Source: Octopus vulgaris
Lineage: Eukaryota
Reading direction: 5' to 3'
NCBI GenBank assembly: GCA_951406725.2
Contig: OX597823.1
Span: 80,414,001 to 80,478,000 of the forward strand
DNA length: 64,000 nucleotides
Below the pieces are notes generated by a model that saw only the letters and a list, made by a program, of their open reading frames with translations, was not told the DNA's origin and ran no database searches. The position numbers were made by a program, and so were the translations under genes. The first letter of the stretch is position 1; each line of letters opens with the position of its first letter. Shown here piece after piece: positions 15,378 through 63,759 of this stretch.

Positions 15378-15722
15378 CGATGTACTTGCATAGCAAGTGA
15401 CCTAATCTGAGATCGTGTGCTGGAACAAAAACAATTGCAGCATGGAAGGTGTTTATAAGCCATTTAAGAAACACACAAAAACCGTTAAACTCACTTCAAC
15501 ATTTAAATTTAATTTGCCAAATATTTTTGTCGCTTTGAGACTGCAACCTTGTTCACCAACAAAATTCCGATGCCACATGGAATTTTGTCAATGAACAGGT
15601 CACGGTCACAAAAGCGATGAAAATATTTTGGCAAATTAAATTTAAATGTTGAAGTGAATCTAATGGCTTTTTTTGTGTGTTTCTTAAATGGCTTATAAAC
15701 ACTTTCCACGCTGCAATTGTTT
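15378..15722. mobile_element. Fold-back element (Penelope-like pseudo-LTR remnant)
   Basis: About 140-bp inverted arms 15429-15568 / 15579-15722 with a 10-bp spacer. Confidence 0.75.
15584..15635 (+). ncRNA. Decayed minimal hammerhead-like motif with C8 (G3:C8 in the other arm)
   Basis: UUUGUCA-AUGAACA-G-GUCAC..GCGAU-GAAA-AUAU-UU^-UGGCAAA; the opposite arm (15513-15563, minus) reads GUGAACA..GUUGC..GCGAC. 7-bp stem I; palindromic AAUAUU stem III. Confidence 0.6.
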
Positions 15723-17146
15723 ATTTATCGACTCCACCAAAAAATGAAAGGTAAAGTTGACCTCAGCTGGATTTGAACTCAGAATGCAGAAAATTAGAAT
15801 GAAAACTAATCATCATCATCATCATCATCATCATCACCATCACCATCATACCACTACCACACCATTATCAACAGCAGTATCAGAGTTAACGTTTTACTTA
15901 TTAAATACCATCTGTTAATTATATTTATGTTATCTAGGTACTGTCAGTTACTCAGAAAATATTAGGTACTACCTGACTATTATTTGCATTGTCATAAAAC
16001 ATTAGATATGACCTGCCAGTTATATACGATGTCATTAGGGTATTTGATACTACCTATCAATTACATGTAATGTCAACTAACTCTAATTAGTTAGGCACTA
16101 ATTAGGCACTAACTCTCAACTGCATATGATGTCATTAAGATATCGGGTTTACATATCACGCCAATTATATATATATAATGTCATTAATATATTAACATAT
16201 TACTAGTCTAATACATAAGGTGCCATTAATATATTAGAATTTATCTGTCGTATAATGTCCAAATAGTTCTTTTATTTAAACTTATATAAAGAATGTAAAA
16301 GAACTTTTAAAATTAGCTGAAAAATTATCAGAAAATTTCATTTTTTTAATTCAATTATTATAACACAAGTAGACAAGAGGAGTATTATTTCTTTACAGAG
16401 CCTCCAAGACTGGTGAGGAAAGAACAGAAGAAACCATGAGTCATGAGTTATATTCAGATCAGAAATATGTTCTGAATTCCTGCAACAGAGAAGGCCCTGC
16501 TAAACACACACAAAGTCCTAGTAGTAATGTTAAGCCTATCTATAGATTATGTTGATCCACCAGTCAAGAACAAGTAGAAGTCATCCAACTGACTTCCACA
16601 TAATTTGTAAATACACACTTTGATTGAATATGGTAAAAGACTATTGGCCCAATTTGTCGCATTCTAGGATCACAAGATTGTGAAGTTGTATGAAAGTACA
16701 AGGTTTTAGATGATCTTAAAGGTACAGAGAGTATATTGTACATATTTTCAACTGTATTTTCCTTTTGCTTGCAAGTTTTCTAAGACATACAAACACAAAC
16801 ACACACACACACACACACACACACACACACACACACACACATACACACATTATATATCATCATCATCATCATCGTTTAACGTCTGTTTTCCATGCTAGCA
16901 TGGGTTGGATGATTTGACTGAGGACTGGCGAACCAGATGGCTGCACCAAGCTCCAATCTTGATCTGGCAGTTTCTACAGCTGGATGCCGTTCCTAACGCC
17001 AACCACTCCGAGAGTATAGTGGGTGGTTTTATGTGCCACCAGCACAAGGGCCAGTCAGGCGGTACTGGCAACGGCCAAATGGGTTTTTTTTTTTACATGC
17101 CACTTGCACACCGGCATAGATGCCAATATATATAAATTTTTATTAC

Positions 17147-17330
17147 CTTTCCTTGATATTTGTTGCTAAGTTTCAAATAAATTCTTGTACGTCCATCCCA
17201 GAGAACATCAAGACCAATGCTGGCAGTCAGTCGAATCAGAATATTGGATACTTTACGAATGACAACATCATCATCTTTGTAAGGTAAACCAATGGACATG
17301 GAATTTACTTCAACTTTGAAACTGCGTAGT
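17147..17330 (-). CDS. Exon: VWD2 middle
   Basis: LRSFKVEVNSMSIGLPYKDDDVVIRKVSNILIRLTASIGLDVLWDGRTRIYLKLSNKYQGK. Confidence 0.96.
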
Positions 17331-18692
17331 CTGAAATTTAAAAAGTGAAAACATATTACAGGTCCTTCAGGAGGATATTGAAGATATCAATAAAAAATAG
17401 TTTCAAATATGACATTTCTCGACAAGATAGATTTATATATAAATTGCTTTCCACTTTTAAAGGTAATGAAATTTTGAGTGGATATACCTATGATTTTTTG
17501 CAGTGAAAGGATTAAGTGAAGTTAACAGTCTTTGTGTGTTTTTGAATGGCTAATGTGTCTTTCACATTGTAATTCTTACAGTTTTCAACAGATGGTTGCA
17601 GATGAAATCACTCGCCAAACATCTCAAAAACCTTAGTGTTGAATACTGATGCAATATTTATCAAATAGTGTATTAATCACACATGTAATTACTGTTTGAT
17701 TTCTTATTTCTAACAAAAAATTGAGCGAGAGTCAAGGACCAAAGCAAAAACTACAGGTTTCCAAACTGGCAACAATCAACTGATTTTGTGAAGAGGTGAT
17801 GTATGTTGTTGTTGTTGTTAAGCCCAAGTCAGTGATAATTAAGTAGACCTTTGATCAAAGATGTTCTAGCCTTGATCACCCTGTCTTTTTTGTATGTCCA
17901 GTATGTCCTTACCTTTTTTGCAATGGTAGTATGTGATCTGAAGATGTGTGATCTGAATTCTATTTCAAGCAGATAAGTAACCACACAAAGGCTTCCCTTG
18001 TCTTCTATGATTATGTATGAGTGTGTGTGTTTATGTTTGGATAAGCACATATCAGAATGTATCTGTACATATACATGCAAGCAAGCATGTGTATGTAAGT
18101 TTGTTTCTAATATGGTATGTTCATATTATTGCTGTATCAAAAATACTCTAAGTACAAAGTATTCAGAAAGTCACTATGCACTGATATATACATACATACA
18201 CACACATACATGTGTGTTTTTGTGTGTGTGTGTATCATCATCATCATCATTTAACACACACACACACACACACACACATTAGTATTAGACTGTGAGAATG
18301 AGTGTTCAACACTGTATTGGTGGATAAATATTCTTTATTTGTGGATTAACAAGGCAGCCAATGGTTTCATGCTATAAAGATCTCCACAATTATTCAAGCA
18401 AACCATTTGGGTAAGTTGCTACTCAATTTTGATGAGAATATGCATATGCGTGTGCATGAGTGTGTGTGTGGGGGTGGGCGTGCATGTATGTATGTACGTA
18501 CGTATATATGTGTATATATGTATGTATATGTAAAGGGAATTTCCAAACACTGTACAATAAAATTAATTTAAATCAAATGATTCAAAACCAAGCCAACTTA
18601 TGTAAATTATATAATTCATTACTAAACATGATAAATTATGCATCATTTATCTATTTATTTTTTCTTGTTTTTCTTCACTTTAAACTACTTAC

Positions 18693-18971
18693 CGAATAAT
18701 TAGGGTATTGTTCTTTGACCCAAATTTAATTGTGACAACTTTGGTGCAGACAGCATCAGTGATTTTATTACAATATTTGTTCTCAATCCAAACTGCGAAA
18801 CTCTCACCACCATCTTTGGCCTGGTACTGAGACAGTACATATTCACATTCTCCTTCAAAGAAGAACTGTCTGCCATCAAAAGTCTGAAAGTGAGGATCAC
18901 CAGACAAGGTACATATTCCTGGACAATCTTTGCTCATGATGCAATTCCAACGACCTCCTTCTGCACAAGTA
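18693..18971 (-). CDS. Exon: end of E1 / VWD2 N-terminal part (GDPH)
   Basis: TCAEGGRWNCIMSKDCPGICTLSGDPHFQTFDGRQFFFEGECEYVLSQ...KNNTLII(R); phase 2-2; joins 30420 across an 11.4-kb intron to give CESCTC. Confidence 0.97.
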
Positions 18972-61745: not shown

Positions 61746-62639
61746 GTTTGTATATATATATATAATTTCTCATTTTCATAGACTTATACTCATCGATTTT
61801 CGAACCATATTGGGTTCTAATCAGCGGTATCTACATCATTTGACTAATCCCAGAGAAATAGCCTGTCTGTTAAAATTCTCAACAAAAACAAATCTACTAC
61901 AAAGAACTGGGACTACCAAATAATTGCATACCATAACGGTTATACATGTATGTGTGTGTGTGTGTGTGCATGCTTGTATGTGTGTGTGTGCGTCTATCTT
62001 CTTCAGAGAAATGCGTGTTTTTCGTCCAGTCTGTTGAAAACTTAATATATCATTTACATCAAGGCGCAGGAGTGGCTGTGTGGTAAGTAGCTTGCTAACC
62101 AACCACATGGTTCTGGGTTCAGTCCCACTGCGTGGGACCTTGGGCAAGTGTCTTCCACTATAGCCTCGGGCCGACCAAAGCCTTGTGAGTGGATTTAGTA
62201 GACGGAAACTGAAAGAAGCCCGTCGTATATATGTATATATATATATGTATGTGTGTATATATGTTTGTGTGTCTGTTTGTCCCCCCAACATCGCTTCACA
62301 ACCGATGCTAGTGTGTTTACACAAGCAGTTCGCAGGAATTGCGTTGCTCCAGGCCATTCACTTATAAATGAGCAACCTTACAATGGATTGGGATCTTGTT
62401 CAGTGGGGAAATGTTTAATGTCGGTCGCTTATAGGCCAAGGAAACTGAGTAAACGGCCCTATGAGCCCGAGGATTCGAAGGTATTGATGAGATGATCATC
62501 ATCATTATCGTCATTATCATGAATACCATATAGAGGTATAATAATTGTAAACACGACTGTAGATCATCGTTTGAAAGCAAATGACAAGAAATATGTTCCG
62601 ATCGGACAATCAACTCAAACTTCAGAATCATTTAAATAT

Positions 62640-63222
62640 CGGGTTCAAATTGTGACACAAGGCCAGCAATATCGAGGACGGGTAAATCAATTACGTCGAC
62701 CCCAGTATTCAACTGGTACTTATCTTATCGATCCTCAAAGGGGATGAAAGGTAAAATCGACCTCGGCGGAATTTGTACTCGGAACGTAAAGACGGACAAA
62801 ATACCTATTTCTTTACTATCCACAAGGGGCTAAACACAGAGAGGACAAACAAGGACAGACAAACGGATTAAGTCGATTATATCGACCCCAGTGCGTAACT
62901 GGTACTTATTTACTCGACCCCGAAAGGGTGAAAGGCAAAGTTGACCTCGGCTTAATTTGAACTCAGAACGTAGCGGCAGACGAAATGCCCATTTCTTTAC
63001 TACCCACAAGGGGCTAAACATAGAGGGGACAAACAAGGACAGACAAACGGATTAAGTCGATTACATCGACCCCAGCACGCAACTAGTACTTAATTTATCG
63101 ACCCCGAAAGGATGAAAGGCAAAGTCGACCTCGGCGGAATTTGAACTCAGAACGTAAAGACGGACAAAATACCGCTAAGCATCTCGTCCGACGTGCTAAC
63201 GATTCTATCAGCTCGCCATCTT
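62640..63222 (-). mobile_element. Head-to-tail SINE B array
   Basis: 184-bp units 62806-62989 and 62990-63173 inside a host B-type element. Confidence 0.85.
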
Positions 63223-63499
63223 CAGAATCATTTAAATATTGGTTTCAGGTTTTGACACAAGGCCAACAGGTTTGGCGAAGTGGATAAACCGATTACATCA
63301 ACTCCAGTACTGAACTGGTACTTATTTTATCGATCCCCGAAAAGGACGAAAGCCAAAGTCGACCTTGGTGGAAAGAATCGTTTAAATATTAACATTTTCT
63401 CGGAAACATGTGTCCCTTTTGGGATCGTCATTGTTTAACTGAGTTGAAATTGTAATTCAGTCCTTTAATTTTAATGGCATACAAAACGTAAATTTGTCT

Positions 63500-63759
63500 A
63501 CATTATTTACATTCGACAGATATTTGTCCACATCTTGTTTGTTGTTAACACCGTTACGGCTGATATGCCCTCCAGCCTTCTTCAGGTGTCTTGGGGAAAT
63601 TTCGAACCTGGGTTCTCATTCCTAAAGTATTTTTCGATATTATTATTATTATTATTATTTCCCCAAGACACCTGAAGAAGGCTGGAGGGTATATCAGCCG
63701 AAACGTTGTGTTAACAACAAACAAGATGAGGACAAATATACGTCGAATGTAAATAATGT
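63500..63759. mobile_element. Fold-back remnant of Penelope-like pseudo-LTRs
   Basis: About 100-bp inverted arms (63500-63600 / 63657-63759), each with the hammerhead motif; the minus-strand copy has GAAA>GUAA. Confidence 0.75.
63667..63712 (+). ncRNA. Minimal type I hammerhead ribozyme motif (Penelope-type), canonical C3:G8 core
   Basis: GACAC-CUGAAGA-A-GGCUG(10 nt)CAGCC-GAAA-CG-UU^-GUGUU: stem I GACAC/GUGUU, stem II, palindromic ACGU stem III. Confidence 0.8.

Follow-up and report, generated by a model that had tools for sequence, protein, structure and literature searches.

The window analysed here is a stretch of 64,000 nucleotides of Octopus vulgaris DNA (assembly GCA_951406725.2, contig OX597823.1, positions 80,414,001 to 80,478,000). 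It harbours four hairpins that appear to be decayed insertions of the ends, or pseudo-long terminal repeats (pLTRs), of Penelope-like elements (PLEs). The hairpin near 15.5 kb derives, as judged from its sequence, from a recently amplified, autonomous element whose hammerhead ribozyme motif has an inverted pair, G3:C8, between core positions 3 and 8. The kind of element and its mode of insertion are known, as are the fold-back form and the U3:A8 core; G3:C8 seems to be a new natural core variant, present in a recently active lineage. We consider it fairly probable that the G3:C8 motif folds as a dimeric, protein-assisted and slow ribozyme, that the hairpins are PLE ends with an autonomous source and that they were formed by the insertion model set out below.

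For each element of the window, candidate relatives number in the hundreds to thousands; the best 40 were scored per search. The resulting family samples consist of the best matches to the window copies and are thus biased towards them; counts are of distinct copies. In the 15.5 kb family, the 3:8 pair is G:C in 38 of 46 older copies and in 32/32 young ones. It is U3:A8 in 25/26 copies of the 36.7 kb family, and C3:G8 in 32/40 copies of the 29.6 kb family and 40/40 of the 63.7 kb family. C:G, U:A and G:C are thus family states, being the majorities in these samples, and the three Watson-Crick versions proposed by the sequence-only reading were borne out at that level. A count of exact 21-mers in the genome, which is unbiased, gave 5,800 matches to the G3:C8 family core with C8 and 344 without it, with none for the reversed controls. 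Among the first 100 C8-bearing matches listed, 98 have G3 (by eye). As a family state, G3:C8 is strongly supported by the sequences.

We also performed a census of 400 kb taken at round coordinates, with a strict descriptor leaving positions 3 and 8 free. It yielded 12 matches, all with a Watson-Crick 3:8 pair, as against 0.4 per 400 kb in eight dinucleotide shuffles. Ten are C:G, seven of them in one tandem array, one is G:C and one is U:A. An additional 160 kb contained two more matches, both U:A, so that the motif is found at eight places in 560 kb, four of them not C:G and none mismatched. The expectation that searches fixed on CUGANGA miss such variants is thereby supported. In practice, such a search overlooks half of the census places (4/8), and the G3:C8 family alone accounts for at least 5,800 exact core matches. 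Locus L150 (2300-4560) contains a retrozyme-like tandem array of ~359-bp units on both strands, with an identical canonical C3:G8 hammerhead in each unit.

At census locus L156, a GIY-YIG endonuclease is encoded 1 kb above a G3:C8 motif. A search with this endonuclease returned 54 identical sequences among the best 150 scored, and the hammerhead lies ~1 kb below the endonuclease at all 44 young loci (L251-L294). G12 is intact in the 32 distinct young copies. Median divergence is 0.0% for 46 young copies versus 4.8% for 50 older ones of the subfamily to which the window copy belongs. Locus L282 has a stop-free frame of 999 element codons, with reverse transcriptase (RT) motifs, read in frame, and a GIY-YIG domain that Pfam recognizes at 25.4 bits (cut-off 22.6). 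Pfam RVT_1 did not match this frame and a PDB search with the young open reading frame (ORF) gave no match; the young ORF has 121 protein relatives, the best of them from Octopus vulgaris, and relatives carry the label reverse transcriptase.

In four loci (L303, L304, L313 and L320), the motif is followed ~90-100 nt downstream by an ATG that reads into the RT and GIY-YIG ORF. As this ATG is downstream of the motif, the ribozyme sits in the 5' untranslated region (UTR), free of coding constraint, and such constraint is ruled out as the cause of G3:C8. The element is organized as pLTR hammerhead, ATG, RT and GIY-YIG ORF, a microsatellite-rich 3' UTR of ~1 kb and the next hammerhead, and TA repeats terminate the young copies. 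Its subfamilies vary in loop II and the flanks, with core and stems unchanged. A pLTR from a partial tandem, inverted truncated copies and a tail at one end characterize the 15.5 kb family as a PLE. The window arm is ~86% identical to the young element.

Comparison of the window with itself revealed four fold-backs, at 15429-15722, 29483-29687, 36570-36812 and 63500-63759, and confirmed the inverted repeats and cores that the sequence-only reading had placed there. With their full extents, the features are as follows.

15371..15722, both strands: fold-back made of two pLTR copies, head to head, from the older subfamily of the G3:C8 PLE lineage
15513..15563, minus strand: decayed hammerhead motif, G3:C8, core at 15556-15550
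15584..15635, plus strand: decayed hammerhead motif, core at 15591
15688..15721, plus strand: first codons of the PLE ORF, truncated at the short 3' end
29457..29688, both strands: fold-back of two pLTR copies of a C3:G8 PLE with a long stem II
36513..36812, both strands: fold-back of the U3:A8 PLE family, with a long tail on the left arm, to 36513
36677..36713, plus strand: minimal hammerhead motif, U3:A8, pattern intact, 3-bp stem I
63500..63799, both strands: fold-back of a tRNA-headed element resembling a short interspersed element (SINE), with a PLE-type end; copy without the head
63667..63712, plus strand: minimal hammerhead motif, C3:G8, pattern intact

The four repeats had been described as sharing one architecture that includes a GAAA. 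This holds at the level of families; in the window, neither 29.6 kb arm has the GAAA, and the 15.5 kb minus arm lacks it as well. Only the plus-strand copies at 36677 and 63667 are intact as motifs. At 15.5 kb, G12 reads A in the minus arm, where stem III is one base short and stem I weakened, and the plus arm has A in place of G3 and a weakened stem II. This fold-back has its long tail on the left arm (to 15371) and its short end on the right arm (15721); the minus arm mirrors the ORF start at 15463 and continues to the long end. The 29.6 kb cores are at 29602 (plus) and inside 29514-29570 (minus), and both arms have lost G12, which reads A. The left arm of the 36.7 kb fold-back begins only at stem III, and the hairpin therefore has a single ribozyme core at its centre, with ORF starts at 36784 (plus) and 36598 (minus). 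Many left arms of this family start a few bases from the predicted cut site (36655-36670 in the window; L031-L060), a pile-up that may reflect bias, as the sample was picked by likeness to the window copy. The 63.7 kb fold-back has a short outer end at 63500 and a long one at 63799, and GAAA and stem III are damaged in its minus-arm motif (63547-63590).

The descriptor with positions 3 and 8 free matched the window at 15591, 36680 and 63672, and did not match at 29602, where G12 reads A. It also matched at 44818 and 59084, with weak stems. Rfam, searched over the window with E up to 1, reported no hammerhead family, and microRNA-type hairpins only below threshold.

The features of PLE minimal hammerheads, namely U4-G5-A6, A9, G12-A13-A14, A15.1:U16.1 and H17, together with stems I and II, an extra base after A9 and a palindromic stem III, are all present in the 15.5, 36.7 and 63.7 kb families. 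The designation as minimal hammerheads thus stands for these three. In the 29.6 kb motif, stem II is long, A9 is followed by no extra base and stem III is small and looped; this motif is of a longer, non-minimal type.

The families had also been called unrelated. Their arms indeed show no DNA similarity, with no blastn match between them better than E 0.02. Nevertheless, the 15.5 and 36.7 kb families encode a common peptide that begins past the ribozyme, with 11 of 32 aligned columns invariant. Their endonucleases show 47% identity and their short and long ends are at matching places; their sequences thus identify them as homologous despite unlike DNA. A third octopus family (L441, L157 and L060) has C3:G8 and an endonuclease ~50% identical to those of both. 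Among metagenome relatives in the RT clade of the G3:C8 element (SH-aLRT 100), L445 and L449 have C:G, and L446 and L447 have U:A; L448, L450, L451, L452 and L453 have no readable motif in the sequence examined. U:A and G:C thus seem to have arisen inside one clade that also contains C:G, which argues against the independence of the families implied by the sequence-only reading. Relative L445 (~4970-5015) has the core variant U15.1:A16.1, and in L446 (~2495-2540) C replaces A9. A single copy with A3 and G8 is found in L503 at 1736.

The predicted link to RT and GIY-YIG ORFs was found for three of the four families, with none for the 63.7 kb family in the sample. In the 36.7 kb family, the link consists of a GIY-YIG domain upstream of the sister subfamily with a U3-G8 wobble and of the shared N-terminal peptide; its RT was not recovered. 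In the 29.6 kb family, an endonuclease-like frame lies upstream of the motif at most of the 30 loci, and L205 and L211 contain RT frames. Pfam matched neither the RT nor the endonuclease frames of this family, and its RT resembles, by eye, Hydra-clade rows of Fig. S1 of Craig et al.

We then considered how the fold-backs form. Of 75 pairs, 66 could be classified, and 64 of these have one long and one short outer end (binomial p 6e-17). The G3:C8 element has two fixed 3' ends, ~57 nt apart. Statements here and below on PMC11167929, PMC8557442, PMC4209133, PMC3088659 and the schistosome studies refer to excerpts of those articles. The long and short ends match the two priming sites and two-strand nicking of the Anolis element (PMC11167929), as well as the inverted copies, tailed on one side, that are known from PLEs (PMC8557442). 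It is very improbable that the fold-backs are DNA transposons akin to miniature inverted-repeat transposable elements, or chance hairpins, with an incidental ribozyme pattern. Inverted arms, high copy number and the Rfam result would agree with this; however, the arms are head to head with variable centres and unequal, fixed outer ends (64/66), the shuffles yield so few descriptor matches, and RT and GIY-YIG ORFs are linked to the motifs, by which this explanation is refuted for three families.

In the insertion model that we favour, the element protein would nick both strands of a TA-rich target, two complementary DNAs (cDNAs) would be primed at the two sites that lie immediately 3' of the ribozyme, and their other ends would be joined into a hairpin. 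The young loop, where present, is in both arms of 16/17 pairs, which is compatible with one or two templates. In L396 and L422, one fold-back combines arms of different subfamilies, suggesting that each of these insertions drew on two RNA templates.

Most copies with an intact 5' region (146/193) terminate at a single point, ~27 nt upstream of the core, and many of them carry an additional G; G is present at -3 in 49% of these 146 short copies. As they span the cleavage site, they came from uncut RNA, and copying that runs off the 5' end of the RNA at this point would generate such copies by the thousands. The fixed 5' end is best explained, we infer, by a start site (initiator) with a cap-derived extra G, which fits better than splicing. 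A spliced 5' exon was rejected as its source, no matching donor being found in six UTRs; a branch-point and acceptor-like stretch is present at the fixed 5' end of short copies, just above the motif, in L282 and L357. A pattern search for longer 5' copies gave one match, ending in TA repeats.

The young G3:C8 motif probably cuts, and this version likely does so only weakly. In the Anolis element, cutting is partly regained with C3G/G8C, a protein assists the ribozyme and insertion proceeds from an uncut RNA template (PMC11167929). Contrary to what the sequence-only reading might suggest, the two arms of one fold-back cannot form a ribozyme dimer, as they lie on opposite strands and are antisense. 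In each of the four window elements, the predicted fold pairs the ribozyme away, and fold-back copies would thus be silent, the antisense arm pairing with the ribozyme.

Several observations weigh against the explanation that we favour. Unconstrained cofolding of two young motifs did not yield a hammerhead dimer, and no single copy is intact from ATG to stop among seven near-full loci. The 3:8 pair does not covary strictly either, contrary to what had been proposed. In the sister subfamily of the 36.7 kb element (L221-L250, e.g. L225, L229 and L230), 20/32 copies have the U3-G8 wobble, tightly linked to the subfamily's own loop II base; a lineage with the wobble was thus able to amplify. Among the first 100 listed 21-mer matches without C8, 45 have G8, 39 U8 and 16 A8, and none has C3 (by eye). 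Of the bases other than C at position 8 of the G3 family, G is thus the most frequent (45 G8 vs 16 A8, p 0.0003), and G3/G8 occurs on every subfamily background (L325-L354 and L405-L440). This excess and its spread would fit relaxed constraint. A single ancestral G3/G8 subfamily is not supported, given its presence on all backgrounds. The change from C8 to G affects ~2.5% of exact G3-family matches, three times as many as C8 to A; G8 is in both arms of L329, L416 and L439 and in only one arm of L337 and L422. Lastly, the RT tree is a quick search, drawn with midpoint rooting and without the 36.7 kb lineage, for which only the endonuclease is available; the order of the 3:8 changes is therefore inferred.

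A rival possibility, which we regard as unlikely but worth weighing, is that the motif no longer cuts in this clade and is retained for its structure, for binding a protein or as a fold of the 5' UTR, positions 3 and 8 drifting and G3:C8 being partly a matter of luck. The amplified U3-G8 subfamily, the recurrent G3/G8 and the relatives with altered core bases (L445 and L446) agree with such drift. Moreover, cutting is dispensable for insertion in vitro in Anolis, where no reads end at the cut site (PMC11167929), and some hammerhead-free PLE clades thrive (PMC8557442). In contrast, the family majorities retain every other core base even though their stems and loops have nothing in common, all 14 census matches are Watson-Crick at 3:8, and the youngest lineage is uniformly G:C (32/32). 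In addition, the U:A subfamily is younger than the U-G one (divergence 4.8% vs 7.3%), a difference that makes a path from C:G through U-G to U:A plausible.

A fully efficient G3:C8 ribozyme, with a 7-bp stem I and a 6-bp palindromic stem III in the dimer compensating for the inverted pair and cutting essential to release unit RNA from tandem transcripts, is improbable in our view. Stem I is longer than in most minimal motifs, the monomer is predicted to fold well (z -3.3), and activity in vitro is on record for covarying 3:8 pairs (ref. 32, as cited in PMC3088659). Against this, most short copies span the cut site, PLE minimal hammerheads are poor cutters even as dimers (PMC4209133), and the C3G/G8C rescue is only partial (PMC11167929; PMC8495972). 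The slow ribozyme that we favour would have evolved within one PLE clade, with U-G and U:A replacing an earlier C:G at 3:8 in one lineage and G:C replacing it in another. In the long term, selection would retain a pair and the fold while tolerating weak states, with cutting slow or dispensable at insertion.

No natural G3:C8 hammerhead was found in the literature searched, which did not include Lunse et al., where one could be described, or Przybilski and Hammann. The inverted pair is known as a laboratory rescue mutant, C3G/G8C (PMC11167929; PMC8495972). U3:A8 has been reported in PLEs of Schistosoma, the Cercyon elements (Cervera and De la Pena 2014, PMC4209133). Perreault et al. (2011, PMC3088659) describe it for natural hammerheads outside this group. 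The octopus motifs resemble the metazoan PLE minimal hammerheads of PMC4209133 in being type I motifs in a pLTR, with an extra base between A9 and G10.1, G10.1-C11.1, a palindromic stem III, opposite-strand pairs nearby and a U3:A8 variant. The text and supplement passages of that article contain neither G3:C8 nor an amplified U3-G8, both of which the octopus families have, and no octopus rows. The natural core variants in PMC3088659 likewise show 3:8 covariation (U3-A8) and U15.1-A16.1 as in L445; the 3:8 pairs in its excerpts are pyrimidine-purine only, whereas the octopus G3:C8 inverts the pair.

The Anolis Poseidon element PAc (Frangieh et al. 2024, PMC11167929) also has its ribozyme at the 5' end of the ORF, two priming sites in the early ORF that define the tail, and nicking of both strands in AT-rich DNA. 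What is a laboratory mutant there is the natural state in the octopus element. The latter differs in that its ATG lies ~90-100 nt below the core with a tail of ~57 nt, and its protein is of another clade, with Dryad/Poseidon-type matches at E 1e-4 to 1e-8 only. As in the PLE insertion units of Craig et al. (2021, PMC8557442), there are inverted 5'-truncated copies, a tail at one end and microsatellite targets. In its cysteine linker, the G3:C8 element is similar to the Nematis rows of that study (by eye); its long insertion between RT motifs 3 and 4 is absent from the Nematis and Neptune rows.

It is possible, although we place it somewhat below an even chance, that the octopus element provides the first case in nature of a hammerhead with an inverted G3:C8 pair, working as a ribozyme in a still-mobile PLE, in a clade that walks between C:G, U:A and G:C via amplified wobble and mismatch states. 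If so, one genome would offer a natural series for measuring how much these elements need self-cleavage, the role of hammerheads in PLEs being an open question (PMC8557442; PMC11167929). Within the literature searched, a very young element with a long ORF thus has a core otherwise found only as a partial-rescue mutant. Its sisters in the same genome have C:G, U:A and U-G, so that a single cleavage experiment could compare matched RNAs of natural origin.

Upstream of 14 copies of the 63.7 kb family that are not fold-backs, we found a tRNA-like head and (AAT)n, and 17/18 copies of the head lead into the 63.7 kb body, with A and B boxes read by eye. ARAGORN called no tRNA in 11 loci. In the sample, the family has no RT and endonuclease ORF of its own, and a broken endonuclease piece is present in one of the 14 copies. 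It seems to behave as a non-autonomous PLE end, and this SINE-like element likely uses PLE machinery. Loci of the tRNA-headed family include L055, L114, L115, L118, L119, L164, L179, L292, L345 and L384. Schistosome hammerhead SINEs and non-LTR retrozymes (PMC6765202, PMC7229834 and bioRxiv 10.64898/2026.07.22.740005) are similarly non-coding, with a promoter-like head and a type I hammerhead; unlike them, the octopus family is dispersed rather than tandem and forms PLE-type fold-backs with long and short ends. The literature searched contained no description of a tRNA-headed SINE-like element with a hammerhead and PLE-type ends.

Other repeats in the window include hairpins at 11977-12121 and 56390-56699, without a hammerhead match. 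A fifth PLE end of the same clade is present at ~39690-39800 on the minus strand, truncated before its ribozyme. Finally, the inverted repeat at 61566-61715 consists of head-to-head tRNA-like SINE heads flanking a microsatellite.

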